A stretch of DNA of 63,846 nt, the filler included, from Reclinomonas americana ATCC 50394 (Eukaryota): assembly GCA_048213135.1 (NCBI GenBank). It is 6 parts of 4 records of this genome, joined end to end, with 100 filler letters (N's around TTAATTAATTAA, not from the genome) between each part and the next. Parts side by side here need not be neighbours in the genome. Positions count along the whole stretch, not along the records: positions 51,333 to 62,336 come from PS015050.1; 5 more parts are not named here. One strand, given 5' to 3'. Each line of letters starts with the position of its first letter. Position 1 is the stretch's first letter. The position numbers and the translations under genes are program-made. The notes under the pieces are model-generated. The model was not told where the DNA came from. It worked only from the letters and a program-made list of their open reading frames with translations, and did no database searches. Of the stretch, positions 4,801 to 62,436 are shown piece by piece.

Positions 4801-7044
4801 TGCGCTCGCCGTTGTGTCGCCCAGCGTGATTGCAACATCTCACGCCTCTGTCGCAGGACGCCGTCACGGTGTATCCACCGGTCAGTCTCTGTCACGGTCC
4901 ACTGACCATTCCTTTGGTTCGCTCACACGTCACCACACGCCACAGTACAATAAGAACCACGAGAACGGCGAGCAGGTGCTGGAGGAGGTGTTCCCCAACC
5001 GCTTTGCGTACTACAAGATCACACCGCAACATCGCTACTATGATCTGCACGTCATGGTGGCCACAAACGATTACCTCGGACTCGGAGACAATTTGGACCT
5101 GTACATTAGGCGCGGTTCACTGCCGACGCTCGCTTTCTTTGATTTCACCTCGATCCGGGAGAGCAACCCGTGGTCCATCGATGTCTATGCGGAGGATTTC
5201 AAGAGTGCGCACGCACTTTTCGCTTGACGCGTCTCCCCTCGTCTCATCTTGCATGTGTTTACAGCGAATGGACTGTGCACGTCCACTGGGTGCCAGACGT
5301 ACTACATTGGAGTGTATGGAGACAATCAGTTCCCACAAAGGAGCGGTGCCTCCCAGTTCCAGCTGCAAGTCTGGTTGGGTATGTTGTTGTCAGACGAACG
5401 CCGACATGGAATGCCAAGGAAGAGCTTGCTCATGCGCTCGCACGTGCAGACATGAACATTACCGACTTCAAGTGCGCCGATGCGACGGGTGCCGCTGCAG
5501 TCAGTGTCGGCACGCCATCCACCATGGTGACCGTCGGCAACTGTCTGCTCCTCAAGGATCGCACTGGCACCACGACGTTGCTACAGACGGTGGCCACCAG
5601 CACTGGATCGCAGGCTGCTCACTTGCCGGTGTCGGTGCGTTTGTGCTGCTGCCGCCCTCTGACCTCTCCGAGCTAAGCTGGGTGTGTCGCGTAGTTTGTG
5701 TTTGACGACATTACGCCGATGCCCAACCGAGTCATGCGACTCACACAGCAGAAAGCCGGCAGCGTGCTGCTGCTCACCGACAGACATCACCGCAGTGGCG
5801 TGTGGCATACCACCCCACTGTACCTGAAGATGGGTTTCGAGGTGCACTTTTCCTTCCGCATCCACAATCCGGGCATGTGCAATGGCCTGGATGGGTTCGT
5901 ATTCATCATCTACTCCGACTTCTTCATCTCTCTCTTTCTCCCTCACCACCACCACCACCACCACCACCACCATCGATGCAGGTTCTGTGCCGGTGGCGAC
6001 GGATTTGCGTTGGTTTTCCAAAAGGATATTACATCGACCAACAAGGGTGTGCTGCCGACGTCCTGGAGTGGCGCTGCCAGCAACACAGTGGGCAAGGGAC
6101 TCGGCTACGAGGGCATGAGCGACATTGTGGCCATCGAGTTTGACACTTGGGTAGGCGATTGACTGTCTAGCTCTGTCTGGTTTTTTCGCTACCAGCGCAC
6201 ACTCGCTCACTCGCTGTGAATCAAATCGCGCAGTTCTCCAAGGACTACTACGATCCAAAACAGGTGAGCCCACGGTCAGTGTCGCCCTCGTTTTCACGTG
6301 TGCACTGACTCGTACCGCCTGCGCGCCGCAGGGAATGGACAATTGGTGGATCAACGCCACCGAGTACGTCAGCTACGCCGACAATCATGTGGGAGGTTCG
6401 TACAGTCGCCCCCGTCATTATCCCTGCCGACTGCTCCGTTGCTGATTTCGCGCATGCTTCTCGATGCGGCGAGTGCAGTGTTTTCCTCCCTCTCGGGCAC
6501 GGCCATCTCTGCCGATCATTCGTCGACGAGCCATGTGACGTCGACTGCGTCGATCCCCAACATCTCCGACGGTCAAGTTCACACGGTGCAAGTGTGGTGC
6601 GTCGCAGTCTGTAGCCTGCGCCTGGGCCCGCAGAGGAGGAAGCACTCACTCCACGTGTGGGGCAGGTACATGCCGGCCATGTTTGGGCGTGCCGGAACCA
6701 TCACCGTGTTTATCGATAATATGCAATCGCCGGTGCTGGTGGCCAACCTCACCCTGGACTCGGCGTATTCGTGGCACCATTTACAGCAAAGAGTTTCGTG
6801 GAGGAGACGACTGCCCCACAAGAACAACTCGATTGCTGACACAAGATGTGTGCGTACAGGGCATCCTCAGTGGCACCGGCTTCGGGTACATGGGTTTCAC
6901 GGGTGCGGTCGGCGACGTCACACAAGACGTCGACATTCTCTCCTGGTCGTTCTGTTCCAAACAGTTGCGTGCACGCCCGTGGGAAGTGTTTCAACACGTG
7001 AACTCACTGTATGACTTGTGAGCAGTGGTTGTGTGGCGTACTAA
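1853..7044 (+). CDS. Large secreted protein: signal peptide, several Cys-containing IPT/Ig-like repeats, PSI-like, PPC-like and C-terminal L-type (legume-like) lectin domain; about 23 introns
   Basis: Signal peptide MRPAALLLLVVVVVVLSVGAQG. Repeats of the form TSFTPTTI..VSGS..D.V..C..Y.VC. PSI-like GCSWC..GVC. PPC-like DLYIRRGSLPT..YYIGVYG. Lectin motifs GGDGFALVFQ, VAIEFDTW, DNHVGV, DGQVHTV, GYMGFTG..ILSWSF. The last exon ends KHGCVAY* (TAA at 7042-7044). Confidence 0.85.
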
Positions 7045-16200: not shown

Positions 16201-16299
16201 CTGCGGAGATTACACGAAGCAAGTGTCAACAATTCTGCACCGTTTGGGAAAGGGANNNNNNNNNNNNNNNNNNNNNNNNNNNNNNNNNNNNNNNNNNNN

Positions 16300-16311
16300 T
16301 TAATTAATTAA
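16300..16311. other. Artificial scaffold-joining spacer TTAATTAATTAA, also at 27749-27760, 43592-43603, 51277-51288 and 62381-62392
   Basis: Identical 12-mer with stops in all six frames, flanked by about 44 N on each side, at five places. Confidence 0.95.
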
Positions 16312-16355
16312 NNNNNNNNNNNNNNNNNNNNNNNNNNNNNNNNNNNNNNNNNNNN

Positions 16356-27344: not shown

Positions 27345-27808
27345 GTGTGTGTCTGTGTGTGTGTCGTGTGTCCATTTTGTGTGTGTAGCTTTTCTGCATA
27401 TTTTTCCCCCCTTGTTAAGCCGTGGCGGCGGTCACCGGGATTGTGTGACTGCTGCCATTGTGCACGTGTGTGTGATTTCGAAAAGAACTCTTCTGTCTCC
27501 TGAGAAGGAGACGGAGAGGATAAGTGCTGTTGTATGTAGCGTACCGACTAGTGTGTGTGTGTGTGTGAGTGTCTGTCGTATAGTGAAACAAAAAGAAGAG
27601 TCCAACAATTGCCTTCATGTTAATGACTCGATGTGCACCTCAAACATGTTGTTGGAGATGGTGAGGTTCCACCAGATGTGATTGGCGCTGAAGCGACGAT
27701 TGAGNNNNNNNNNNNNNNNNNNNNNNNNNNNNNNNNNNNNNNNNNNNNTTAATTAATTAANNNNNNNNNNNNNNNNNNNNNNNNNNNNNNNNNNNNNNNN
27801 NNNNACAG

Positions 27809-36500: not shown

Positions 36501-37306
36501 CAGATGTGACTCCCGACTCACAACAGTGCTACCACTACGCACGTGGTGTGCTCGACTGCCTGCGGTTTGTGCAGGAGCGTGGCTACACACTCTCCAACGT
36601 TCGCCGCTCCATGGTTCGCTCCCTCATGTGTTGTTGTTCTTGGTGCAATGGTGACAGTGGTGCTGAACCCGTTATTTCTCGTGTCCACAGTTTGGCAAGT
36701 ACACAGACGACGAGGAGAACACGTGGGTGCGCATTGCCGATGTTGGTGGACTGCAGCGACTGGGCACCGGTGTGCGCGAGTGCCTGGTGTGGCTGGCGGC
36801 ACCTGAACTGGTGCGCGCCGCCTCGGCCGGCAAGCCCGTGCAGAGCAACATCCCTATGGAGGTGTGGTCGTGGGGCCTGCTGGCCTTTGAGCTGTTTGCT
36901 GGCGAAACGCTGTATGCGCGCCAGATGAAGCTGGCGTCGTCACGCGAGATCTGCCAGTTTGTGCTAAAGATGGAGACCGATCCGCCGTTTGACAACTGTG
37001 GACTGCCGGCGGAGGTGAGTGCACAACAAACAGCGTGTCGCTCTCTCCCTCCCTCAGTCGCTCCGACCCTTAACGCGCCTCTCTCTCTTTCTCTTTCTCT
37101 GCTTGCAGGTGATCCGCATGCTTGGTCGTGCACTCCGTCTCGACCCTTCGCAGCGCGCGTCGCTGTGGGAGCTGGCCGAGGACGCAGTATGGAAGCCGAT
37201 TAAGAAGCGTCACGATGCTCTGTACCAAAGGTACACCATGTCACACGCATCACCGGGCACCGGCAGCAACGAGATCGATGACGGCGAACCCATGGCCTCG
37301 GAGTAG
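30532..37306 (+). CDS. Large multidomain protein: low-complexity N-terminus, WD40 propeller, FN3-like, coiled coil, low-complexity linker, C-terminal pseudokinase; about 15 introns
   Basis: WD40 repeats GHSADVTCCAYHP..SGDNSIMVWD and GHTDDVSSVVFHP. FN3-like VHGLQPHSEYTFRVVA. Kinase-like motifs VMLK, SPYVVKLLD, LVLE, IADVG, AAPE, MEVWSWG and RLDPSQR. TAG at 37306. Confidence 0.8.
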
Positions 37307-38115: not shown

Positions 38116-40796
38116 ATGAGTGTGCGCGCGTATGTGTGTGCGTTGCCCTCAATCTTCAATTCCATGTGCCTCACTCTCCGCTTCCTCTCTCTCTCTTCCT
38201 CTCTTTCTCTCTCTTGCTCTCTCTCTACACACAGTTGTACGGCGACATTCTGTCGGAGCCCGTGGACGCCATTGTTGCGGTGATTACGGGACCGTCGTAT
38301 TCACTGGCCAACTGCACCATTGCGGATCTGGTGGATCGTGTGGGCTCGAGTGTGCTGGTGCGCGTCTATGTGTGTCTGTCTGCGCCTTTGATCCATCTTG
38401 ACTGATGCGGGTGGCGCGCAGGCGGAGTTCATGCGCAAGTTGTCACAACAGCAGGTCACCACCGGCAGCGTGTTCCACATCTCCGGCGGCGGCCAGCTCT
38501 CGGTGCCGTACATTATCTGTGCTCTGTACGACGGGCGACATGAGGGGCTCGACATGAGCAGTGCGGTGAAGTTGACGGTGCAGCGTGTCATTGAGACCGC
38601 TGACGAGCTCGGCTGCAGCAGCATTGCGTTTGCGAACTTGCACAAGGGTGCGCATGTGTGTCTGGAGAGAGGGCATAGACGTGTGCTGGACTTTGTGAAA
38701 CTCAAAAAGTTGCTGGTCTCGCAGGCTTCTTCCCTGCGCAAGCGTTCTTGCAGGCGGCGCTCCCGGTGCTGCAGCAGGCAGCGGATATGGTCGAATCCAA
38801 CAGCACTTCGGTGCAAGACTTTCGATTCGTCGAGCCGGTGCTCGCCAGTGGTGCCGAGCAGGGTCTGGTCGAGATCATCATGGTCCGGTTTGCGGACGAG
38901 GTTTGTTGAGCGCTGGTAATGGGCGACTCGGGAAGATGGAAGCAGTTTCGATTCATTTTCCGCCCGTCTCCACAGCTCTCTCGCACGCCAGGGTACAAGC
39001 CGCTGGTCGGCGACATTAGCCAGATCGTGAAGCAACCGTCGGCACCGGTCAAGGCTGCCGAGGCGCCTCCAGTCGACCCACGCACGTGCTACGCATCACA
39101 TGTGCGTCTGGCACCGGTGCCGCCCTCTCGTGCTCACGGCGGCGAAGGCAGCATTACCTTTATCGACAAGGGTGCGTATTCATTCTTGCGTGTCTTTTCT
39201 TTTTCTCTTCCCCTACTCACTCCGACTGGCAGGCGACGGCACGCAAATGGTGGCCAGAGCCACAGTTGCACAGCTGATTGAGCATCTCACACAGCACAAT
39301 GCGCACTGTTGCGTCGCGCTCCCCCATTTTGTCTGTCCTCGGTGACCATGCTTACTTGTTGCGTGCAGCCATGTTCACGTTCAGCTTCCTGCTGACCTTC
39401 CGTTCGTTCATGTCGCCGGCCGAACTGGCTGACCGTCTCATCGAGGTGTTCAATCTGATGCCGCCGAGTCTGGAGCCCAAGGAGTTTGCGATGTTCAAGA
39501 AGAACACCCTCGACAGGGTCCGCCTGCGGTCAGTCGTGCATGGCCCTCTCTCGCAGTGTGACGACCACTCTCACGTGCTGCTGCCAGGGTTATCAATGTG
39601 CTGCGCAAGTGGCTGCGCGATTCGCGGCGCGACTTTGAGGATGAGTCGCTGCTGGAGCGCATTCGTGTGTTTGTGAGAGACGAAGTGGCGTTTGTGTACG
39701 GCCCGGCGGCGATGCTGACCACGCAACTGAATGGCGAACTCGACGCATTCGTCCAGTGGCGTGAGGAACAGCGCTTGTCACAACAATCTATCCTGCCCGC
39801 CATTCAAGTGATGCCGGCAAATGCCACGCTCGACGACAAGATTGCCATTGTCTGCAACGACAACATACTCGACAAGTGGGACTCGACGCAGATTGCACAG
39901 CAGGTGAGATCCGTGCGGGAGGGAAATGGTAATGTGAAGGGAGAGTGGAGCTCTGACATCATCATGTGTGCGCAGATTACACTGTTGGTGTTTGACCTGT
40001 TCCAGCGCGTCGAATCGTACGAGTGCGTCGACCGGTACTGGAACATCGAGGGCAAGAAGCACTTGGCACCCAACATTTGCCGCGCCACGGAGCAATTCAA
40101 TCGTTTCTGCAACTGGGTGTCGTCGACGATTGTCACGCAAACGGATCTCAAGAAGCGAAAGAAGTACCTGAAGACCATCATTGAGATCGCAGAGGTATGT
40201 CGTGGTGTCGCCACGCAGAGGCATGGTGTGGTGCTGATGCTCGCTCGCTGCCAGAAATGTCGCACGTACAACAACTTTGAGACGGTGGTCGCGGTGGTGG
40301 GAGCCCTCGGCTCGGCCTCTGTGCGCCGCCTGACCAAGACGTTCGAGCAGCTGTCGAGGAGTGCGCAGGCGCTGTACAACTCGCACATGCGCCTCTTCCC
40401 GGAGAACAAGAACATGAAGGCTTTGCGCGATGCGGTGCGCTCGTCGCAGGGTCCATGCGTGCCCTACCTGGGCCGCTTCCTTACCGACATTATCCTCGCC
40501 GACGCCGGCAACCGCGACAAGGACGATGACCGTCGCATCAACTTCCGCAAGTGCACCATTATCGCCGAGGTCAGTGTTTCCTCTTGGGAAAGTTGTGATG
40601 CCTCCCGTCCTCCATTGCTCACTACGTCGTCGACTTTGCGCAGGCCATTCGCGACATGCAACTGTACCAGCAGTTCCCGTACTCGTTTGCGCGCAACGAG
40701 GAGATACAGAGGCGTCTCGTGTCGCTGCCGTCGCTGAGCGAGGACGAGATGTTTGAGTTGTCGCTGCGGGTCCAACCACGACAACCAAGCCGGTGA
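37555..40796 (+). CDS. Macro domain - REM - CDC25-type RasGEF fusion protein; about 12 introns
   Basis: Macro motifs LYGDILSEPVDAIV, GQLSVPYIICA and GCSSIAF. REM motifs ATVAQLIEHLT and FLLTFRSFMSP. CDC25 motifs IAQQITL, APNI..FNRFCNWV, NNFETVVAVVGALGS and PCVPYLGRFLTD..GNRD..INFRKC. Confidence 0.88.
38052..38114 (+). repeat. (GT)n microsatellite within an intron
   Basis: About 30 uninterrupted GT units directly after a GTGAGT donor. Confidence 0.95.
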
Positions 40797-40881: not shown

Positions 40882-42017
40882 TCACTCTTCGCTCGCTGCG
40901 TTGTGCGGTCGCTTGAGTGGTGGCGGCTCCGCCTCGTCGGCCTCAGTGTGCTCCAGTGGTCGCTTGCGTGTGTCGAGTGGAGACAACTCTGATACCGCTG
41001 CTGTTGGTGGCGGTGGTGGTGGTGGTGGTGGCGGCGGAGGAGGAACGGCCACTCCAACGTGCTGGCGAAACGTGAGTGAGATGCGTGGTGTCAGCAGCTT
41101 GTTGGAGCGCTGTGGAGGAATTCCGTGCTTCCAATTCTGCTGCGTGGTGCCGCGCATCACCAGCAACGACCCGTGCGTCACTGTGACTCGCTTCTTGCGA
41201 CTCTTGTCGCGCTTGCTCTGCAAGTCAAAGTATCGCGAGGCCCCGAGTGATATGCTGCGCGCGTAAAAGGTCAGCCAACGACAATGTAACAAGGGCACGA
41301 AAACGCCGCCTCCCCCCACCAGGCAACGCAGCCACTGGAGAGCGACTTCTCGTCGTCTGCATGCAGTCCGACCGAATCGCTGCCGTCGCGGTACAAGTTG
41401 GCCAGGATGGCTGCACTCGCACCTTCAGCACTCACTACCACACCACGGTCGCAGTCCACTCACCATTAAAGTGTGTGTTGAGGTGGTGATTGATGTTGCG
41501 CAGCAGCTCGTCCACCGCGTCTGGCGTTCGCTGGCACACCAGCCCGCGGTTCTTCGAGTACCGATACGCCTGTTCCACACACACACGAGTCAGCGACGAG
41601 CACCGAGCTGCATGCCCGCAAACACACACCGGTACCTCGACTTCCGCACTGCGCGTGATGAACGCCATGCCTCGGTGCTGGATGCAGTCGCGCCCATTGA
41701 TCACCACCGGCAACTCGAACTGACAATTATGAGCGACAACTAGAACGGCAAACAACAAGAAGACGAGCAGTCTGACCTGGAACTTGATGCCACTCCGCTC
41801 CTCGTCCATCAACAGCGCAAACATGTCATCGGCCACCGCCCTGCGCCAAGAAGCAATGAGCATATGCAGCGCGGGGAGGAGAACACCACCACAGACGACC
41901 CGCACACTCACCGGTCGAGGAAGTGAGGCTCAAAGCTCACGAGTGACCCATCGGGCTCGTCAAGCACATATTCGACAACTGTGCACGCAGCGATCATCAA
42001 TCACTAATCACAATGAA

Positions 42018-43547: not shown

Positions 43548-43985
43548 NNNNNNNNNNNNNNNNNNNNNNNNNNNNNNNNNNNNNNNNNNNNTTAATTAAT
43601 TAANNNNNNNNNNNNNNNNNNNNNNNNNNNNNNNNNNNNNNNNNNNNTCTTCTTCTCTCTCTCCTTGTCGTCCTCTCTCTCTCTCTCTCTCTCTCTTTCT
43701 TGTTCTTGACTCGAGGCTCGTTCTCTCCGTTCACTGCACAATCGTTCCTCCCGTTGTCTGTGTGCTCGTCTGCCTTCTTCCGAGTCTTGCTGCCCGTTCC
43801 CTTGTGCCTCCTCTCTTTCTCACCTCCCTTGTCTGTGCGCTCTCTTGTTCTTATCTGCCCTTATTGCTTGACCTGTGTCGTTCTGCCTGCCTCGTTGTGC
43901 CTTGCTCTCCCTCGCCCTCCCCTGTTCTTCGCCTCTCTCTTTGTCCCCTGCTGCGCCTCACATCTCCACCCTCCCTCCCTCTCAG

Positions 43986-48198: not shown

Positions 48199-51100
48199 CT
48201 AATGTCTCACATGCACGAAGATATTGCATCGCAACCTTTCCACTGGGCACGCCTCGCCGCTGCGACCAAACACAATCGGGTCCTTCACAACAGTCGGCTT
48301 GAACATGACCGGCTGTTTGCGCAACGGGCGACTGGCACGGCCCTCCTCCGCTTCGACCGGAGCCGCCGGCGCCATCTCCTGCTCGCGCGCGTGCTGCAAC
48401 TGCACCTCGGCCACCACGGCAGCCGCCTCCAGCGACCACATGCGCAGGGAGCTGTCGGTGCCGCCACACAACACAGAGCGACCGTCTGGCGTGACGGCGA
48501 GCGCCGAGACGCGGCCAAATGTCGACACGTCAAAGTGGCACACCTCCATGTCGGTCTGCAGACTCCACACACTCAGCGACTGCGAATCACCGCCGACCAC
48601 CACGAATCGTCCGTCAGGCGGCGTGATGGCCAAGGCACGCACACGCATGGTCGGCGGCAGCATAAGGCACTTGACCTCCCGACCGGACTCCAGATGCCAC
48701 ACACGGAGGGTCTTGTCCCCACCGCCACTGACTGCGTGCACACCGTCGGGCGTGCAAACCACGGCCCCGACCCACTCGGTGTGACCCGTCAGCACCTTGC
48801 TGCTCGTCACAGATGGCTTGTCCACGCAAAAGTCCCACACACGCACGGTGCGGTCCCAACTGCAGCTCACAATGCACGAGTTCTTCGGGCCGACAGCTAC
48901 GCCGCTCACGGAGAGCGAGTGGCTCGTCATGGTGGACACCAGGGCTCCCGCTTCATGCAAATCCCACAGTCGAACGGTGCAGTCGGCGGCGCCAGTCACC
49001 GCGTAGCGCCCGTCGGCACTCACCGCGACCGTCGTCACGTCGTTCTCGTGTCCACTCAACTCGCACTCGGCCGCGCCCCGTGCCACATTCCACACGTCCA
49101 CTTGCCGATGCTTGCTGACGCTCAGAAGGCGCTGGCCATCGGGCGTCACGGCTAGCGCTCGAACAGGGCGCGTTCCGGTCGAGAGGTGCGCGACTGCACG
49201 ACGCGTGCTCAACGACCACGCAATCAGCAGGCCGTCATCGCCGCCACTGACTGCATGCAGTCCGTCAGGCATGGCCACCGTCGCTCGCACCGCCTTGCGA
49301 TGCCCGACCAGCCTCTTGGTGGACAGTGTGGTTGTCTCGACAAACAGTGGAGGAAGATGCAAAGCAGAAGCCGCCGCATCAAACACAGCAGTCGACGCAC
49401 TACCAGCTGCTGCTGACCCACTGTCGTGTCTTTCGCGAGTTGCCACCGTTGTAGCAGCAGCTGCGGGCGGAGAAGTGCAGTCGTCTGCTGGCGCAGGCAA
49501 GATCCACACGCGAAGTGTGCGGTCGTTGCCACCGCTAATGGCGCGGAGGCCATCGCTCGTCACCGCCACCGAATACACAGCTCCGGTGTGTCCCGACAGT
49601 CGCGAGACCACCTCGGCTTCGCATTCTGCGACCGGCTCGCCACTGTCGGTGATCGCCGACGAAAACGAGAGGCGCCACAGCAACAGAGTGTCGTCGTCGC
49701 CAGCCGTGAGGAAGCGTCGCGAGTCGGGAGTGAGGCACACACAGTTGACGCCGTTGGTGTGGGGAGCACGCACGCAATGCACCTGTTGTCCGTGGGCCAG
49801 AGACCACACTCGCACGGTGCAGTCTTTGGCGCCGCTGAGGAGGTGCTGCCCGTCGGACGTCACCACCAGGCTCATCACGTTGCCGGTGTGGCCCTCCAGC
49901 ACCCACAACGGTTGCACGGCAGCGTCACCAGAGTCCACGGCCGCGTCGTCAGATTCGTCGACATGTCGGAGAACATGCTCTTGAGCAGCCTGTGTGGGCC
50001 ACGCCCGGATAAGCTTGTCGTCGCCGGCCGAAAGCAGCAGCTTGCCGTCGGGAGTGGCCACCAGGGTTTCGACGCGGCCCTCGTGACTGCGCATGCAACA
50101 GTGCCGTACGGCCTCCGGCTGCGGGACGTCCTCCAGCTGCCCGAACGACAACGAGGAGCGCACGTGACCCAAGTGAGCCGACGGCATGGCCCACATGCGA
50201 ACAGTGCCATCGGCTGCGGCACTGGCCACAAAGCGGTCATTGTCCAGCAAACACAGCGCCGTGACGGGTTGCCGATGGCCGGAGAACACACGAACGGGGC
50301 GCGACGACAAGTGTGACCACAGCACCAGGTAGTTGTCCCAGCCGCCACTGACGAGCAGCCGATTGTCCGCCGTGGCCACAAGCGCCTTGATGCCGTCGAC
50401 GGCGGTCGCATGCATGCGGAAGACCTTGACTTCCTCGCCCGACGGCAGGTACCACACGCGCATGGTGGCGTCGTTGGAACAGGTGGCGAGGAAACGGCCC
50501 GGTAACGTGATAATTCCGTTGACGTTGCGCTCGTGGCCCTCCAGGCGGCGGACCTCTTCGCCGGTGGCAAGCACCCACACTCGAGCCGTTCGGTCCTTGC
50601 TGCCACTGACAATGTGCAGACTATCGGGCGTGATGGTGACGGCTTGCACCTCATCCGTGTGACCCTCGAAACGATGCACGACTTCGCCCGTAGCCAGTGA
50701 CCAGACCCACACCGTGCGGTCGTTGCCGCCACACACCACATGCCGCCCATCCGGTGTCACCGACACGGAGCGCACGGCATGTCTCTCGCCTTTGAGCTCA
50801 ATGTGCGACAAGCCATCGGCGATCGAGTACACGTACACCAAACGATTGCCGCCGCCAAACACCACGTTCCGGCAGTCGGGGGTAAAGGCGACCGACAGCA
50901 CAAAGCGCTTGTCAGCAGTGGGAATTCGGCGCACCACCTCTCCGGTCTCCACTGACCAGATGCACACATGACCGTCACTGCCACCCGAGACCAAATGTTG
51001 CACGTCTGGCGAGAAAGCTGCGCTCGTGACGATGCTCTCATGCGCCACTGCCTGCCATCGCAGGGCTCCATCGAGAAGCTGCCACACGCGGAGCGTCGAA

Positions 51101-51232
51101 TCTCCCGCACCACCACTTGCCACCAGCAGTCCGTCGGCACTCACGGCCACCGCACAAACGCTAAACTGCGGGTGCGCCTGCAACACATGGAGCGTCTCGT
51201 ACGGCGCCACCGTACACCACACGCGGACAGTG
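48199..51232 (-). CDS. Long WD40 repeat array (well over ten repeats) in a single uninterrupted ORF of about 3 kb; 5' end truncated
   Basis: Repeated GH...V..V.VTPDG...SG..D.T.RVW motifs across 1007 aa with no intron needed. Confidence 0.9.
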
Positions 51233-51332
51233 NNNNNNNNNNNNNNNNNNNNNNNNNNNNNNNNNNNNNNNNNNNNTTAATTAATTAANNNNNNNNNNNN
51301 NNNNNNNNNNNNNNNNNNNNNNNNNNNNNNNN

Positions 51333-52052
51333 TCGCGAGTGCTGTCCGATTGTGCGTCGATACAGCTCGCGCGTGTGGGGATTCTTGCACCTGTCGCTGT
51401 TGGAGCACTGTGTGGCGCGTCATCTGTTTGCACTTGCCAGCTGGCGGCGTCGGTTGCGCGAGGATGATGTGCAAGAGCACATTCTGTGCCGTCGGTCGTT
51501 GGCCGATCGGCACTCTCTGGTCTCCCAGATGGCTGAGGAGGTTCGCCGCTCGGCCTCGCTGCAGGAGCGCCTGTGGGAGATGGTCTCCTTCTCTTCGCGG
51601 TCGCCCGGCAACGAGGCACTGTGCATGGCAGCCGCCAACGCGGCCACCATTTTGTGTGCCGCCCAGGTGTCGTTTTCGGGTCGTGATCTCTCCGGTGTGC
51701 AGCTGCGCGGCAGTGACTTGCGTGATGTGGTGATGCATCGTACTGTGTTCCGCGGTGCCGACCTCTGCGAGGCGAATCTGTTCCGAGCGTTTGCTCTCGA
51801 GGCGAATTTCAGTGAGGCCAGTCTCGATTCCGCTCGACTCGCTCGTGTGCCCTACGATGGTCACACCGACGAAGTGATGTCTGTGGCAGCACTTCCGGAT
51901 TCGCAACACTTTGTCACCGGTGGTCGTGACGGCACTGTGCGCTTGTGGCGGCTCACCAGTGAGGACCCTGTGCACATCTACGTGGGACACTCGGCAGCGG
52001 TGCTCTCGGTGGCGGCCAGTCGCTCGATGGTGGTGAGCGGCAGTGACGATAA
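51333..52052 (+). CDS. Fragment encoding pentapeptide repeats followed by WD40 repeats, as in the NACHT-WD40 linker region
   Basis: AAANAATILCAAQVSFSGRDLSGVQLRGSDL..GADLCEANL..ANFSEASL, then GHTDEVMSVA..TGGRDGTVRLW. Confidence 0.85.
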
Positions 52053-52341: not shown

Positions 52342-55300
52342 TGTGGCGGTAGCGCTCGTCAAAGAACGATCGCAGATGTTCGTCGTGCGACGTTGACGAC
52401 GACTGCGCAACGGTCTGCTGCATCCAGCGAGCGCCGCCAAACCGTGAAGCACGCTCCTCCACATCCTCTTCACCCGCCAGCGGCTGAATGATAGCAACAC
52501 GCACGAGACTGGTGTGCATGGCGGCCGCCAGACCCTCACAGTAGTCCAAGCAGTCCTCCTCGGTCGGCAACAGCGATTTGCCGAGTCTCATCAGGCGGTT
52601 GCGCTCACGTTGCACCCAGTGGCGGATGAAATGGTCAAACACAAAGTTGCGTGTGAGTGGCAACGCCAGCGTGTCTGCGCTGCGGAGGGGAGCCAGCATG
52701 CGACACAGGCGGGCCAGCACCTGAACCACAGCCGACAGCAAGAACGGGGTGGTCACCAAAGCATCCAAGCCAGCAATGCTGCGCATCGCGGCACGATAGT
52801 CGTCCACGGTCATCAGAATGTCGTCACCCTCCACCTCGTCCCCCTCCAGACTGCCACCGCTACCGAATGACAAACCACGCCCGAGAGCAGCTGGTGACGG
52901 GGTTGATTCCTCCGAGGCGGCACGACTCGAATGAGACCAGCTGGAGCTGCTGGAGGCGATGGAGACAGCAGACGACAGAGCACCGACAACCAGTGGCACT
53001 GGTGAACCCTCGACCGGCGACGCAGCCCCAGCACTTGGTGATCGCGCCTGACTGTCCTGCGTTCCCAACTGCGAGCCCTTGACGTACACCAGATAGTGCT
53101 CAATGTACGTGTTGATCTGATCCTCATCGAACGGCGCAATGTATCGCTCCTGCAGTCGATCCAACTCCAATCGCCCTTGATCATCAATCGGTGCCAAGAA
53201 GCGACGGTAGTCGGTGCCACCGGAGCCGAGACCGGCCGCGTAATCCGAGCGGCACGTCACAATNNNNNNNNNNNNNNNNNNNNNNNNNNNNNNNNNNNNN
53301 NNNNNNNNNNNNNNNNNNNNNNNNNNNNNNNNNNNNNNNNNNNNNNNNNNNNNNNNNNNNNNNNNNNNNNNNNNNNNNNNNNNNNNNNNNNNNNNNNNNN
53401 NNNNNNNNNNNNNNNNNNNNNNNNNNNNNNNNNNNNNNNNNNNNNNNNNNNNNNNNNNNNNNNNNNNNNNNNNNNNNNNNNNNNNNNNNNNNNNNNNNNN
53501 NNNNNNNNNNNNNNNNNNNNNNNNNNNNNNNNNNNNNNNNNNNNNNNNNNNNNNNNNNNNNNNNNNNNNNNNNNNNNNNNNNNNNNNNNNNNNNNNNNNN
53601 NNNNNNNNNNNNNNNNNNNNNNNNNNNNNNNNNNNNNNNNNNNNNNNNNNNNNNNNNNNNNNNNNNNNNNNNNNNNNNNNNNNNNNNNNNNNNNNNNNNN
53701 NNNNNNNNNNNNNNNNNNNNNNNNNNNNGATCTTGACGTCTTGGAAGGTGTACAGCTGTGAGCGACGTGTGAGCGAGAGGGAGTGAGTGATTGAGGGAGG
53801 AGAGGGAGAGAGAGGGAGATGAATGGGCGAGGAGGTACCTTGTTGGAGCTGTATAGATTAATGTCTCGGCCAAGCTCGTCAAAGCCATCGAGGAGAAGCA
53901 AAATCTTCAACTCTCGGATGGCCCGCATATTGTCGGCCTGGAATTCGGGTAGCACCAGTTNNNNNNNNNNNNNNNNNNNNCGAGTGCCTCTTGTACCAAA
54001 TTCGTGTCGGGGCGACTTAGCTGCGCCAGAGAGACGCGCAGTGGCAAGCGAGCCGCACTTGATTCGCGCCACTGCTGCCACGCCCAGTGCGTCAGCACCG
54101 ACATACTCGTCGTCTTGCCGGCCCCGCTGTCACCCAGCAACGCCAACACCCGGCATTGCTGATCACTGATAAAGGCCTCAATCTGTCGTTTTTATAGAAG
54201 ACACAGTCTCCAAGTAAGTTCAATGTGCAGGAACACACAGGCAAATGACAGCACGCACCTCTCCGCGCAGCTCACGTGGCACCTCTTCATGACCGGAGAT
54301 GCGTGGCGTCGCGGTGCAGCGCAGCGGCACGTACATCATCATCTCCTTTTGCATGTCTTTGTTTTCCGAGTAGAACGCCAGTTCACGCTCGCACAGTTGT
54401 TGCAGTTGAGCATGCAGATCAGAGATGAGACGCCCAATTGGTGCTGAGGGAGGATGAGAGGCGTGAGGACAGCATCAATGAGGGACACAGGGCACGCAGA
54501 GTGCACACACCGGTGCGTATGTCTTGCAGTTGCTTGATAACACGGTTCATGTCGCCCAGCAGTTGCAGCTGGCGAACAAGCCGAAACAGAGAGCCTTCGC
54601 TACTGCCGCTGCCGAGGAGCTCACGCACTTCTCGGTCGTGTGCGATAAACGTCTCACGATGGAAGACAGAGTTGCGAATTTCGCGAAGCTCGGCGATGCA
54701 TGCCCGCTGCGACACCACAGGAGATGGTGTCAGCAGAAGCCTCAGTCGACATTAATGTGCTCACTCACCTCCATCTTGGACTCTATCACCATCCACTTGT
54801 TCTTCCCGCTGCCCGCGAGACCCGCATGCAGGAGAACCGAGGCAACCATGGTCACGTCCCACGTCTCGCAGCTCGGCGACGCCTTCGGATTCGAGTCGTA
54901 CGCCCTCCTCCACGCCTCGATCGACGGCCACACATCGGCGTGAAGTTTCACGCAATGTCCATCTGGTTTGTGGCTGCAGCGCACGGACAGAGAGAAAAGT
55001 TTGACATGCCAGGTCGATGGAGAGTGAGACAAGAGACGATACGCACCTCGCAGGGATGTCTCTTGTGTTCAGATGCAGCCAGTTCATCACGTCAAAGTCG
55101 CCACGATGCTTGCGCGCAAAGTCAAACAGGCCGCGTTGCACACGAAGCTGCAGTGCACGGGCCACCACACTCAGTGCCGCCACCAAGCGGATAAAATTCC
55201 CCTGCCTGTGTGTGTGTGTGTGTCTCCGAGTGAGTGGCAGCGCTGCACACGTACTCTTGTGCAGAACACGCAACCGTACCCCGTGTTGCTCGCAGTCTCT

Positions 55301-55962
55301 GCCGGCCCCGCCGCCGCGCTCTTTGCAGCAGTCACCGCAGGCGGAGTGAATGGTTCTTCTTCGCCGTCGGCACCCCATTCAGTAGCGTCAAAGGTTGGCA
55401 TTGGTGTTGGGCTGCATAGGAAGTGATGATGGAGTGAGCACGAAGCAGACACCAGCAAGAGATAGCGACAAGAAGCGTGTCTGAGACTCCACGCAGCGCA
55501 GCGGGACATGCACATTCACACGCAGGATGAAACCTGTCACAATAAGCACACCCACACACAAACCTTCCCGTCTGCTGCTGTGTGACCACCTCCATCTCAA
55601 ACGTGGTCTCGTCGCACACTCCGAGGGCGGCCAGCGGCACTCTTGCCGCCAAGTCCAACTGATACGGCATTGGCTTGATGATGCGGTCGACGTCCAACGT
55701 TGGATCTCCGCACTCTCTTCTCAAGATGGTGCACGCGCGTGCAAGCACTTGCCCAAGTGTGTCGAGTGCGCGGACATCGACCACGGTCACCGGGCGCAGT
55801 GTGGTGAGAGACGAGCTCCGAGTGCTGCTGGCGACAAAGTGCACGGCAAAGGTGCGATCCTGCAGGGGAGGAAGGTGGAGGAAAAGAAGGTGGGCACACA
55901 GAGTGGAGAGGAAGGGAGGGAGGGAGGGAGGGAGGGAGGGACAGGAAGGGAAAGCTCACCAT
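52342..55962 (-). CDS. NLR-like STAND NTPase: ubiquitin-like N-terminus, DZIP3-type HEPN-like domain, NACHT; interrupted by N gaps
   Basis: ATG at 55962 immediately followed by an intron. HEPN-like NFIRL, WDVTMVASVL and IAELREIRNSVFH (Rx4H). NACHT motifs YVPLRC, Walker A GDSGAGKT, Walker B LLLLDGFDE, VTCRSDY, IAPFDEDQI..YI, TPFLL and FDHFIRHW. Confidence 0.82.
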
Positions 55963-56058
55963 GACTACGTATGTCAAGATTTGTTCCGGGCGGGACTTGC
56001 ATGACACAAACGTGCACGTGACTTCCAGAAGTTCATGCTCATCTTCTCATTCTTTATT

Positions 56059-58564
56059 CTAACCATTGGCGGCGATGAGACGATCGAGGATCCACAGCTT
56101 CCACCGTCGCCACGCGCGCATTAATCTCCGATACAGTGGCTGCAGATTGAGCGTGTACTCGAACAGTGTGATGACACTGAAGAGCGTCAGGCCAAAGTTG
56201 ACGCGGTGTTTCACGCGCCATCTGTGCGGTGATAATGATGGTGCCGGTGGTGGTGGTGGTGGTGACAGCAGTCCGCCGGGTGGCGATGGGCTGAGACTGG
56301 GCAGCGTGTCGGCATCCGCCACCGGTGCCAGCCTGAACGAGTCCACCAGGGATGTGGTGGCGGGTTTCGCGGCTTCCGGAGGTGGTGAGGCGGCAGCCGC
56401 TGCTGGTGGTGGTGGTGGTGGTGGAGACGTTGGCGGTGATGACGCAAGGCGCTTGTGGTGCAGATCGAGAACAATCCAGAAGAGAAAGGCGTCGCAGCCC
56501 CAGGTGACCTCCAGTGGCACGCGCAGCACCGGCTGCAACGCACCCTGTCGACGTTTCGAGCGCTTGAGAAACACCTGGAAAAACGTGCTGTGATACGGTG
56601 AGGGGGGGTGTCAGTCCAGCGCGACAACGTGGAGAGCACAAGTCGAGGGGCGCGCACCGCAGCTGAATCCCCTCGGCCAGCTGCAGCATGTTTTCGGCGA
56701 CCTTTTTGCGCAGAAATGACTTGACCCTGGCGGGAGATAACAAGAGCAGTGAGCTCACGCATCGCCGACACGAGTGCTGATGAGCAGTAACCGTTGCGTG
56801 TTGGGCGGCCACACGGTCGAGCGCAGGCTGTGCTCCATCATGGCGGCCTGCAGATCGAGCCAGTAGCGCAGCACACGCGAAACCTGGTGAATAATGTTGC
56901 GCACGCGATCGACCACCTGCACGATACAGGCACGTGTCAGTCTGCCTTTCAAGGCTGCATCCCTCGCCACATGAACGCAACATGCAGTGCGCCAGGTCCC
57001 GAGCTCAACTGCGTTGCAAGGTGAGCGGAGAGACACGGATTGGCGTGATACGTGGGAGCCGACGCACTTTCATCTCGTCGGGCAGCTCCTTTTGCATCAC
57101 GGGTGGAAACGGTAGCTCGACAATCTGCCATGACAAAGAGATGAGCTCGTGAGGTGAATGCAGACTGCAAACGCGCAGGTCTTACATCTTCGCGCTCCTC
57201 CTCCTCGACACTCTGTAATGACTCCTCGTACTTGCGGCGGCGGTCGTCGGAAAACTTGCAGATCGACCACGACTTGGCCACACCGAGAATGTAGCGGCCC
57301 ATGCGAGAGAGAAGCTCCACACGGTAACCTGCAGTTTGGTGGAAGAGGATGGTGGGAACAGAGAAGTGAACAGACGGCAAAAGGAGAAAAGAACGCAGAA
57401 CAACTGGCCCTCAAGACCAAGAGACTCTTACTTCCTGTCCGCATCCATACCTTGACTCTCGCCGCTCAGCGACATGGTTGAGTAGGGTGAAAACAGATTG
57501 GTGATCGCACCCACCACATCGATAGTCTCGCTGCGACATTGTAGTGTGAGTACTCGCGATCACACTTCACGTGCCAAGCTACATGCGCACACGCAACAGT
57601 GCCGACATCCATTTGGGAGCGATGAACGAACGCCGCACTCGCACATGGTGATTCACTCGGCGCAGTCGCGTCGTGTACTCGACATTGGTCGTCGCTGTAT
57701 GTTGCCAGTGAGCTGACCTGGCTCTCCACTTGCCAATAGCCACCACCCACTCACCCGTGTATGGTCCCCACTTGCCGGCCAGCGAGTTACCAATGAGAAA
57801 GTACGGAATCGTCTGCGTTAGCAGGTTGCCGAAGCGACGCTGCCACTGATCGGTGGCATACGACGTGGTCGGCTCGCCAAACTGTTCCTCCGTACCGGAA
57901 CGAGCCAGGTTGCGTGCATGCACGCTAAAGACGCCTGGTGACACGCTTCAGAGCCCGCAGCACACGAGGCTGGAAAATTGACTGTGACACACTCACCCTT
58001 GACGTTCTCCACCTCGCGTGCCCGGGCCACCAGGCGCAAGGCCAAACGCTGCAGCAACATGAAGAGACTCCATCCACGCGGAGGATCCAGACTGAACAGA
58101 GAGCGCAGGTACCTGCACACTGCTGTTGAGAAGAGAGAGAGAATCGCAGTGCCTGTCTCCCCCTACTGGCGTGTTGAAACACAACTCAATCAGAGGAATG
58201 CCGCGGCTGAGGGCGTCGCGGACCGACTCCAAGTCGGCGACAGAGTAGTGGTACTCCTGCGTGAGTCGATAAGACAAACAACATGCACAGCGGAATGATC
58301 ATCCATTCAGCAGACCATGCCCACTCCGTAGCTGCGATGCCCCTCGCTCTGAATGTAACTATGTGTGCATGTGTGAGTGTGCACACACATGGAGACAGAC
58401 AGACAGAGCGAGTCGTGTTGTTGAACACACCACAAAGGAACCTCCACATTGGCCTTTGGTTTGCATCGCAGCGCGAGATCGATCTCGGCGTGGCTGAAGT
58501 CCCACGGATTGGCGGCATGCTGGCTTTCCCAGTTGAGTTTGGCATGGAAGCGCTCGACTTCCAT
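56059..58564 (-). CDS. Hypothetical multi-exon protein; could be two genes
   Basis: ATG at 58564 (MEVERFHAKLNW) and a chain of frame-consistent exons ending WILDRLIAANG*. No family recognised. Confidence 0.5.
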
Positions 58565-58723
58565 TGCCCTGTGGCTCACCGAGGGAGCACGAGGGGTGAA
58601 GGAAGGACGAGATGACTGCGTGCAGGACGCGAAGTGCAATAGGAACGACTTCTCAAGCGGAGCTATGCATGCCCGGATACGAGCAGTGTTCTTTATAGAT
58701 CTGAGAGAGAATGCCAGTTGCTG

Positions 58724-61264
58724 TCAGGCATCATGGTCCGCATCTGGCAGCTCCGGGTGGAACTTGCGCACCGTTTCCCACATGGCCACTGTGAGCTGCT
58801 GGTTGGTATGGTGACGAGCAGACAGTACTGCGTGCTTACGAACCACGCAAGTCGCGAACGCCCAGCTCGTGAATTGCAGCTTCGAACAAGAACTCTTCAT
58901 CGAGTCCTTCCGGGGGCCGTGCGGGTTGCTTTTTTTACAGCAGATGGCAGTGCACGGTGAGAGAGTGAAGGCTCCCACGACGCAGCAACTTGTCACACGC
59001 AACATCGTGCACGTCCACCACCAGCTGTCGGATGGGGTTGAAATAGGCATGGTCCAGCACCTCTTCCAGCGAGCACCGGTCATCCGGGATGAACTGCCAA
59101 CAGGTGAGCATGTATGGCCGGTGATACAGCTTCTCTCTCTGCTCTCACGCCTCTCACCTTGAGAATTTTTCCGATCAGGTCCAGTGCTGTTGGAGAACGT
59201 GAGTGCCACGAACAGGAGAAGCAGCGTGCCGCCGATCATGCACACACCGTCAGCAGGGCAACCAGGCAGCAACTCTGGCCAACCGGGAGGCACGCAGATG
59301 GGTCGGCGGCGGAACCAGCTGCCCATGGCCTCGGCATACTCGCCCTGCGTACTGCCGATGATCCATTCCCTCATCCTCTCATCGAAGCCGACCTTGCGCA
59401 TGATCTCGAGGATTTGGTGGGTCTCTGCATGCAACACGCTGAGCAGGGTGCACACGAGGAGGGAAACCTTGTCCCTCACCTGTTTGGCCGTCCAGCACCG
59501 GTTCGTATACGTCGTAATCTGCAGTCGCAATCGTGCGCGGCTATTGAGACGCACACGACACCTCGCGGGATAAACAAACTGAGAGAAGACAAGGCAAACC
59601 TGTGTCTGGTCTGCGCTGCGCAACGAATGCCACGGTGAGCCAAGTGAGTGGAAGACCATGGAGTGATTGAGAGAGTACTCACAACCAGCTTCTCAAAGTT
59701 GTACATGCGCGCGAGAATGCAGCCTGAAACGGTCAAGTGAGCACGAAGAGATCGTCACACACCGAAAAGAGAAAGAAAAAGACGCACCGTAGCTCCACAA
59801 GTCGAGTGCGGGAAAGAAGGAGAAAAATAGAAAGCAGTGTCAGCAGTTGAGATCATTGCAAGGGAGGGCGCTTGCTAGTCACATATCTCGGTGGTCGTAG
59901 GGCGCTCGCGCAAGAACCTCCGGAGCACCTGTACATGGGTGTGACGATGACATTCTCTGATCGGGCGACAACGCATTGACAACGCAACGGTAGGTCAATG
60001 TTTGTACGAGCGGTGTGTGTTTGTCGCCGGCGCCTGGGTTCTCGAGCATCATGCGTGACAAACCGAGGTCGCACACCTGTCAACCACGTTGAGGAGTGGA
60101 CCAGACGGCGGCACACACCCGTCGTGTTCCGGCTAGCTCACCTTGGCGCCAAGCTTCCCATCATCCCGCGTGAACAGCAGGACATTCTTTGCCGTACTGC
60201 ACACAGCGGCTGGTGAGCGCACCGAGCACATGACAGTGCTTTCCGTGACCAGCAGTCACGCAACAGATCACGGTGGAGAATGTTGGCGTCGCGCAGATAC
60301 TGCAGCGCCTTGGCCATGTCGTACATGATCAGACGCCGGTTTGTCTCGCTGCGATCGTCACTTGCTGGACCAAGGCAGTGAGGACCCATCGAACTGCAGG
60401 CGCGAGCCATCTGAGGTTGAAAGGAGACGACGGTGGTGGTGCACAGGGACGCAACGCCTCCAGTGAACCGCCGTCGACCAGCTCCGTGATAATGTAGACC
60501 TCCTGGAAATCCGCAAAGCGTGGACTTGGCGGTTTGAGGTCGAGCAAGCGCATGATCTGTGAACATTACAAGGGTGAGGCAGTGGCGATGGGTGCGAGAG
60601 TGGAGACCGACGACGCAACATTCGGGTGGAATACACGTGACAACAGTCGAAGCTCACGGAGCAGGCTGCAGAAGCGACATGAGGGCGATGGGGGGCGATG
60701 AGGTGAGGCATGGAAGATGAGTAGCTACCGTTGGACGTAGACTTTGGCACACTGGTGACTGTCGCACATGTCAGCGTCAACACGAGAGACAGGCAGACAT
60801 ACGGAGAGAGACGAAACTCCAAACGAAGAGACACACGCTAGAGGGGTCAAAGCCACATTCGTCAGTGACTATACCAACGCCTGACAGCAGAGAGAAGCCT
60901 CACCTTGACAGCCACCTCCAGCCTGCCATCATGTTCGGAAAAAATGCAAGACAACTGAGCGCCAGGAAAAGTCAGGAGACGAAGGTAGAAAGAGCATCAG
61001 ACCTAGCTCTTCGGCACTGTCCATCTGTGCGTGTGAAGAAGAGTGGTGAGAGAGAGAGACAGGAAGAGATAATGTCAGATGCGATCGTTTCTCATGATCA
61101 TCGATGGTATTCAAGCAAGCAATCGCTGCGTAACACTGCATCGCACGCACCCACAGTCAGTCAACGCAGATGCATCACCACTGGCCACACAACGCAACTG
61201 CTCCGCCACCGAGGAAACCTTCCTCAGTCATGTCGACAACACATTGAGCACCCACTGGCCACTC
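58724..61264 (-). CDS. Atypical CMGC (MAPK/CDK-like) Ser/Thr protein kinase; 5' end in an N gap; about 15 introns including a 1-nt exon and an AT-AC intron
   Basis: Spliced motifs FLGGGAYGQC, EVAVK, RLLRELRLL..HPNIMRLLD, FQEVYIITEL, ILHRDLTAKNVLL, KVCDLGLSR, VQTLTYRAPEV, VDLWSYGCI, ALDLIGKILKFIPDDR..LDHAYF, and a MAPK-like tail FLFE..KFHPE. Confidence 0.9.
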
Positions 61265-61695
61265 CTGCACACACGCAACCAACGAGTCAGGCGAACGAAG
61301 GAGGGAGAGGAGAGGAGANNNNNNNNNNNNNNNNNNNNNNNNNNNNNNNNNNNNNNNNNNNNNNNNNNNNNNNNNNNNNNNNNNNNNNNNNNNNNNNNNN
61401 NNNNNNNNNNNNNNNNNNNNNNNNNNNNNNNNNNNNNNNNNNNNNNNNNNNNNNNNNNNNNNNNNNNNNNNNNNNNNNNNNNNNNNNNNNNNNNNNNNNN
61501 NNNNNNNNNNNNNNNNNNNNNNNNNNNNNNNNNNNNNNNNNNNNNNNNNNNNNNNNNNNNNNNNNNNNNNNNNNNNNNNNNNNNNNNNNGAAGATGGAGA
61601 GAAGACCGCACCTGCTGAGCCATGTTGACAACGAAGGACGCAACTCGCGAGTCATTGTCTTGCTTACTTACTTGCGTGCGACACGGAGAGAGAGG

Positions 61696-62336: not shown

Positions 62337-62436
62337 NNNNNNNNNNNNNNNNNNNNNNNNNNNNNNNNNNNNNNNNNNNNTTAATTAATTAANNNNNNNN
62401 NNNNNNNNNNNNNNNNNNNNNNNNNNNNNNNNNNNN

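Follow-up and report, generated by a model that had tools for sequence, protein, structure and literature searches.

The question raised by this locus is whether a protein kinase gene of Reclinomonas americana ATCC 50394 is interrupted by a spliceosomal intron that begins with AT and ends with AC, and, if so, whether such an intron would belong to the major (U2-type) or the minor (U12-type) spliceosome. The DNA analysed, called the window here, is the whole stretch of 63,846 nucleotides (nt) joined from parts of GenBank assembly GCA_048213135.1, and the segment in question lies on its minus strand at 59886..59806. An earlier note had described an 81-nt segment with AT..AC ends at this place, the removal of which restores the kinase subdomain IX motif as PYDHR-V-DLWSYG; the sequence read there agrees, and the upstream exon and an 18-nt microexon (Table 1), when joined, give precisely that peptide. 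The further observations of the note, namely a branch motif followed by a long pyrimidine tract and the lack of any AG before the DLWS codons, were also borne out, in that CTGAC precedes an unbroken run of 18 pyrimidines, no AG occurs between the branch motif and the exon, and the first AG after CTGAC lies 13 nt inside the microexon. Judged from these and the sequence features described below, the segment is probably a functional AT-AC intron of the U2 type (type II), which would be removed by the major spliceosome.

The exons of the host gene, many of them short, were modelled by coordinates on the minus strand, and the resulting 15-exon model (60954..59004) contains 13 GT-AG introns and the one AT-AC intron. 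Once spliced, the model spans, as judged by eye, the VAVK lysine, the HRD, DLG and APE motifs, the subdomain IX motif and a CMGC-like C-lobe. A local kinase profile hidden Markov model was built from 40 kinase-domain segments excised from the best 120 proteins listed in an unrelated WD40 search. Against this profile, the spliced kinase with the AT-AC junction scored 73.9–74.8 bits (74.8 bits over profile positions 38–215), and the alignment was gapless from APE through DxWSxG. The motif D-[LIVM]-W-S-x-G, in any frame, arose in 28 of 200,000 Markov-resampled 163-nt spacers, and the DxWSxG-like motif of the microexon is the only one in 4.3 kb of the minus strand (61318..57000), so that a second subdomain IX exon in this region was discarded. 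The profile fit, the low chance rate and the single occurrence of the motif together indicate that the microexon is real coding sequence, or was so until very recently, and if it is coding, the 81 nt must be removed before it. Retention of the intron brings a stop at the third codon of the read-through, and the final G of the microexon belongs to a codon that is completed by the next exon. When nine 81-nt deletion registers (−4 to +4) were compared, the AT-AC register came out on top with 73.9 bits (range 65.7–73.9), leading the others by 0.6–8.2 bits. Observed directly were the features of the sequence, the absence of stops from the frame and the match to the profile. The intron itself lies well within a gap-free stretch of the window (53981..61318).

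To place the signals of the AT-AC intron among those of its neighbours, they were set beside a comparison set of 16, later 18, GT-AG introns from the kinase gene and from a 2OG-Fe(II) oxygenase gene (41911..41255) that matches Pfam PF13532 in its last exon (E = 6.6e-15). The neighbours are 53–81 nt long (n = 16), with one more of 137 nt, and end in CAG (17 of 18) or TAG (1 of 18), against 81 nt and AC for the AT-AC intron. A branch motif of the form CTSAC or CTCAT was found in 10 of 16 neighbours, at 10–20 nt from the 3′ end, and the AT-AC intron has CTGAC at 34 nt. Its pyrimidine content is far higher: the fraction over the last 20 nt is 0.90 compared with 0.30–0.70 (n = 16), and the longest pyrimidine run is 18 compared with at most 9 (n = 16). 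The donor ATATGT differs from the local donor GTATGT at position +1 only and carries G at +5. The earlier note had likened it to the major-spliceosome GTATGT, and this likeness gained in weight, as GTATGT proved to be a genuine local donor: it also opens another intron of the same kinase gene, at 60802; it occurs six times upstream of 212 branch/acceptor anchors where 1.6 were expected (3.8-fold enrichment); and intron-like architecture follows it at 10 of the 23 sites in the window. Given the inferred junction, the segment thus combines AT..AC ends with a donor that is U2-type except at +1 and with a U2-type branch motif and tract, the combination that marks type II AT-AC introns by sequence. 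Every defining feature that can be tested in the sequence points to the U2 type and not to the U12 type.

The same locus holds a canonical GT-AG pair 90 nt apart, from 59882 to 59793 (Table 1), which exists in frame and, as the earlier note had claimed for the GT-AG alternative, removes D-L-W-S. If this were the intron removed, D-L-W-S would be intronic, the product would be a kinase-like protein without the core of subdomain IX, and a recent displacement of the splice site would have produced the AT-AC reading as an artefact. The pair keeps the frame, uses the first AG after the branch motif, needs no special explanation with standard spliceosomes, and could be spliced alone or beside the AT-AC form, all of which speaks for it and tells against the AT-AC junction. 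However, its product scored 61.5 bits against 73.9, that is 12.4 bits lower, with a three-residue deletion in the most conserved motif of the C-lobe, and the intact in-frame motif would then have to be a coincidence (28 of 200,000). The splice sites are also atypical for this neighbourhood: the acceptor is GAG where all 18 curated acceptors are YAG, which makes it unlike them, though not impossible (by eye, about 5 of some 30 candidates led by the donor GTTGCGT have GAG acceptors), and the donor GTGACT has C at +5 where the curated donors starting with GTGA all have G. We therefore regard the canonical 90-nt intron as unlikely to be the one removed. A nested-intron (stwintron) arrangement was discarded on inspection, as the only AGs after the GT at 59882 lie within 16 nt of that GT or in the microexon.

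U12-type signals were looked for in the intron and in the whole window. The U12 donor consensus is [AG]TATCCTT, and the branch-site consensus is TCCTTAAC-like. Over positions +3 to +9 the AT-AC intron matches the donor consensus at 2 of 7 positions (0–4 of 7 in the 18 GT-AG neighbours), and its best U12-branch-like 8-mer, TCCTTCTT, contains no adenosine; the claim of the earlier note that neither a U12 donor nor a U12 branch site is present therefore stands. In excerpts of the review by Turunen et al. (2013; PMC3584512), donor and branch sequences are what defines a U12-type intron; such introns show no distinct pyrimidine tract, and the distance between branch site and 3′ end is optimal at 11–13 nt. 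The AT-AC intron shows neither such a donor nor a branch site at that spacing, and it has a tract. An intron spliced by the minor spliceosome, perhaps with a consensus peculiar to this lineage, would account for the AT-AC ends, for the first four bases, ATAT, which are common to the U12 donor consensus, and for a TCCTT pentamer (59821..59817) near the expected U12 branch distance from the 3′ end; a lineage-specific alteration of the minor-spliceosome consensus is conceivable and counts to that extent against a U2-type assignment. On the other side, donor positions +5 to +9 are unmatched and the 2 of 7 is no better than in GT-AG neighbours, the TCCTT-like 8-mer is without a branch adenosine, and the strong pyrimidine tract and the distant CTGAC are U2 features. 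Counts over the whole window are at the chance level, with one U12 donor pattern (1.2 expected) and three U12 branch patterns (3.7 expected), and an Rfam search of the 64 kb found nothing, minor small nuclear RNAs included, although none would be expected at such a size. Taken together, a U12-type identity is extremely unlikely.

Two U12-like strings occur elsewhere in the window. The sole perfect U12-type donor string, ATATCCTTT, at 6021–6029 on the minus strand, lies inside a 263-codon open reading frame (ORF), and no branch-site match was found nearby downstream of it. Kinase intron 5 (60077–60141, minus strand), a GT-AG intron with the donor GTGAGC, contains TCCTCAAC, which matches the U12 branch consensus at 7 of 8 positions, 12 nt from the 3′ end; given the U2-type donor, this likeness is probably a coincidence.

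The locus might also hold no functional AT-AC intron at all, either because the gene is a decaying pseudogene in which former GT..AG ends have mutated, or because the terminal bases are assembly errors. Such an explanation gains from the fact that the N-terminal part of the kinase, with the glycine loop and the start codon, lies outside the model; this gap leaves some probability to a decaying gene. It gains also from the nature of the window, a draft scaffold with N-linkers, and from the protein database searches, which returned neither a homologue nor a self-match: word-indexed searches with a 58-amino-acid exon and with a 63-amino-acid read-through piece gave no matches, and phmmer gave none in the PDB. 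The one metagenome locus retrieved with the 58-amino-acid exon (L001) has 12 of 18 identities; it was discarded as a chance match seeded by the pattern, and it is not hit by the spliced kinase model. Against decay or error stand the 319 open codons over 15 exons and the canonical ends of all 13 other introns. In addition, decay or error would have had to strike precisely the first and the last base and to yield the pair of changes that, according to excerpts of Sheth et al. (2006; PMC1557818), rescue each other, which is very unlikely. Two sequencing errors would be far less likely than membership of a rare but real class (24 of 610,067, as detailed below), so that a real intron is favoured. 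An explanation by decay or error therefore appears quite unlikely.

Several other findings weigh against the reading as a U2-type AT-AC intron. Registers −4 to +2 scored no more than 3.2 bits below the AT-AC register, and the protein evidence therefore sets the length removed but leaves the border uncertain by a few bases; the exact AT and AC ends are chosen because register 0 is the only one of the nine with end dinucleotides of what we take to be a known spliceosomal class, and this is the weakest link of the argument. The profile was derived from bacterial kinases, and when eight single-exon pieces were searched against Pfam, the best match was Pkinase on the HRD exon with E = 0.061 and 13.1 bits, under the cut-off of 31.7. 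The local ranges come from a small set drawn from our own models of two genes, and relative to them the 34-nt branch distance falls outside and the 81-nt length at the edge. The window as a whole has no excess of AT-AC introns: a block-pair screen found a canonical solution for 176 of 223 pairs, and an AT-AC solution for 21 of the 47 unsolved pairs, compared with 18–27 for control dinucleotides, so that the intron is a single case and not a property of the window. This screen is blind to 18-nt exons and did not detect the intron under study. Two screens for coding potential, which used flanks of 42 nt, failed to tell GT-AG apart from control dinucleotides; a one-matrix expectation–maximisation run on donors returned a weak GTG motif and missed GTTGCGT; and a set of 21 introns with a "unique canonical solution" was dropped as noisy, with seven GAG acceptors and random donors. 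Two further AT-AC candidates were rejected, as ATATGT..AC at 41971 lies within an exon of the 2OG-Fe(II) oxygenase gene, and ATGCGT..CAC at 56762 shares bases with a plausible GT-AG intron of 32 nt.

If the segment is a U2-type AT-AC intron, its splicing can be pictured as follows; that RNA is joined at this junction, that the major spliceosome does so and that the tract contributes are all conclusions drawn from the sequence. U1 and U6 would recognise ATATGT after the exon bases ..GAG as they do the local GTATGT donors, with position +1 alone differing, and U2 would base-pair at CTGAC, 34 nt before the 3′ end. Some U2-type introns combine a long pyrimidine tract with independence of an AG, and by analogy the unusually long tract here may recruit U2AF unaided and so make up for the lack of an AG at the 3′ end. 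The second step would bring A(+1) into a non-canonical pair with the terminal C(−1), and through this pairing the first usable AC after the branch site would be chosen over the AG 13 nt further on. The proposed 3′ end fits a scan for a compatible base, being the first AC that lies over 2 nt beyond the branch motif. The product would be the PYDHR exon joined to the 18-nt microexon, with V-D-L-W-S-Y-G of subdomain IX restored.

Two routes to such an intron may be considered. In the first, two terminal changes would have occurred in a GTATGT..CAG intron; indeed, two single changes would make the present intron a textbook GTATGT..GCAG intron. In the second, a former U12-type intron starting with ATATCC would have changed at +5 and +6, the two positions at which ATATGT differs from ATATCC. 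The TCCTT at 59821..59817 (minus strand) stands where a U12 branch site would once have been, but it lies inside the pyrimidine tract and is thus weak evidence for this route. This is the route proposed for the vertebrate cases in excerpts of Lin et al. (PMC2831892), by which a U12-type ATATCC.. donor acquires G at +5 and is improved by T at +6; the intron is then "trapped", as switching its ends needs two simultaneous changes. It is doubtful, although conceivable from the sequence, that the AT-AC and GT-AG pairs are used alternatively, and/or that the intron is such a "trapped" former U12-type intron with an acquired U2 branch site and tract. If so, alternative use would switch the kinase between an intact subdomain IX and a form without D-L-W-S, and the intron would preserve a natural instance of conversion from U12 to U2 outside animals, perhaps in a lineage that has lost the minor spliceosome.

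Table 1. Positions, strands and main properties of the features discussed, counted along the whole window.
Feature	Position	Strand	Description
Host gene, modelled part	59004..60954	minus	15 exons, 957 nt, 319 stop-free codons; CMGC-like protein kinase domain
Proposed AT-AC intron	59806..59886	minus	81 nt, phase 1; begins ATATGT, ends CAC
Proposed 5′ splice site ATATGT	59881..59886	minus	preceded by exon bases ..GAG
Branch-site motif CTGAC	59839..59843	minus	candidate branch A is 59840; distance to the 3′ end 34 nt
Pyrimidine tract	59809..59836	minus	28-nt pyrimidine-rich stretch; unbroken 18-pyrimidine run at 59810..59827
Proposed 3′ terminal AC	59806..59807	minus	no earlier AC lies over 2 nt beyond the branch motif
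Upstream exon	59887..59928	minus	42 nt; APEVL...PYDHR and the first base (G) of the V codon
Microexon	59788..59805	minus	18 nt; TC, D-L-W-S-Y, then G; (V)DLWSY(G), core of kinase subdomain IX
Next intron	59724..59787	minus	canonical GTGCGT..CAG, 64 nt
Competing GT-AG intron	59793..59882	minus	90 nt, in frame, GTGACT..GGAG; would remove D-L-W-S
Kinase intron 10	59519-59599	minus	81 nt, GTTTGC..CAG; modelled as a single intron because the frame is kept
GTTGCGT examples	60619, 60455, 60264, 59988, 59003	minus	
GTTGCGT examples	13960, 14124, 44148, 47801	plus	
N runs	16256-16355, 27705-27804, 43548-43647, 51233-51332, 62337-62436 and others		
Neighbouring gene	337-891	minus	
Neighbouring gene	39562-40737	plus	
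Neighbouring gene	40885-41424	minus	
Neighbouring gene	48202-51231	minus	
Neighbouring gene	51334-52052	plus-frame listing	

Other introns of the window show features of their own. The heptamer GTTGCGT is an unusually common intron start here: it occurs at 48 sites, where 15.7 were expected and none of 100 shuffles reached 48, and among the 14 kinase-gene introns that were modelled or begun, 5 open with it. A strict 55–80-nt intron architecture follows GTTGCGT at 18 of these 48 sites; for comparison, it follows letter permutations of the heptamer at 129 of 1736 sites, GTGCGT at 18 of 90 and GTGAGT at 8 of 63. With T, G, C and G at +3 to +6, this donor would pair poorly with the standard U1 5′ end; it resembles GTGCGT with an extra T, and a shifted or bulged U1 register is possible. 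Our literature search found no description of GTTGCGT or GUUGCG donors. Kinase intron 10 contains an internal ..CAG, then 17 nt, then GT.., and thus a candidate for a further mini-exon. A possible 32-nt GT-AG intron at 56727–56758 (minus strand; GTGAGC..CCAG with CTCAC inside) keeps a long frame, has no homology support, and is much shorter than the window norm of about 64 nt.

The window is eukaryotic DNA with 59.3% G+C, in which very intron-dense genes adjoin long intron-free ORFs. A second kinase-like ORF on the plus strand (36667–37203) has a degenerate C-lobe and a subdomain IX of M-E-V-W-S-W-G in a single exon. It matches Pfam Pkinase with E = 4.3e-4 and 20.2 bits, under the cut-off, and phmmer with 36667..37098 against 1.84 billion representative proteins gave no matches; the ORF may encode a pseudokinase. 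The neighbours further include an intron-free WD40-repeat ORF of 1010 codons, for which 7,229 generic WD40 proteins were found at E ≤ 1e-10, the best 120 listed being at most 37% identical and containing no self-match, and beside which lies a stretch that, by eye, resembles pentapeptide repeats. A RasGEF domain gene, a mitochondrial carrier and the 2OG-Fe(II) oxygenase (AlkB-like) gene were also recognised. The N runs comprise eight pairs of 44-N runs, each pair flanking 12 bases, which read TTAATTAATTAA where inspected and give stops in six frames, together with longer runs of 271–903 nt; some genes are interrupted by gaps, and we read the window as a scaffold of joined contigs. A literature search for the TTAATTAATTAA linker returned just general uses in contig joining.

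A paper by Wu and Krainer of 1997 is reportedly the reference cited for U2-dependent AT-AC introns. That such introns are known but very rare, as the earlier note had stated, is supported by the survey of Sheth et al. (2006; PMC1557818), excerpts of which report 24 among the 610,067 introns of five model species (human 15, mouse 6, Drosophila 3, C. elegans and Arabidopsis none). The same excerpts name human SCN4A and SCN5A and the TAF2 gene of human and Drosophila as examples, mention fungal xylanase genes as hypothesised cases, and give an experimental U2 assignment for SCN4A and SCN5A only. An excerpt of Frey and Pucker (PMC7072748) likewise attributes the splicing of some AT-AC introns to the U2 spliceosome, and in the excerpts of Lin et al. 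(PMC2831892) the known U2-type AT-AC introns (the sodium-channel cases) carry G at +5. The present intron resembles this type II class (SCN4A/SCN5A, TAF2) in its AT-AC ends, in a donor that is otherwise U2-type with G at +5, and in having no U12 donor or branch site. It differs in its host, which is GC-rich (59%), of unicellular type, with introns of about 64 nt, and not an animal. Unlike the introns of SCN4A and SCN5A, it is 81 nt long, with a microexon of 18 nt at its border and a GT-AG pair competing in frame, and whereas their splicing and U2 dependence have been demonstrated, the present intron is known from its DNA.

With U12-type AT-AC introns, the present intron shares the termini and the first four bases, ATAT, but it has no ..ATCCTT donor and no branch site at 11–13 nt, and it has a strong tract. 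It bears the same terminal pair, on an otherwise ordinary U2-type intron, as the engineered mutants in which, according to the excerpts of Sheth et al. (2006; PMC1557818), a G-to-A change of the first base is rescued by a G-to-C change of the last base in yeast and human U2-type introns. These mutants point to the mechanism proposed here, a non-Watson–Crick contact between the first and last bases in the second step; they splice less efficiently, whereas the present intron would be a natural and presumably fixed example. Its tract, far above those of its neighbours (0.90 against 0.30–0.70), recalls AG-independent introns, by analogy only. If the assignment is right, the compatibility of the major spliceosome with A(+1) and C(−1) would be used outside animals and fungi, and the intron, only 81 nt long and with its GT-AG competitor, would offer a compact natural substrate for second-step choice and AG-independent 3′ recognition. 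It would also bear on the origin of type II introns, by a double terminal change or by U12-to-U2 conversion. In practical terms, gene predictors limited to GT/GC-AG introns will miss the 18-nt microexon, and the kinase would then be annotated without its subdomain IX motif. Set against the known systems by its sequence features, the intron is probably a new case of the known, very rare type II class.

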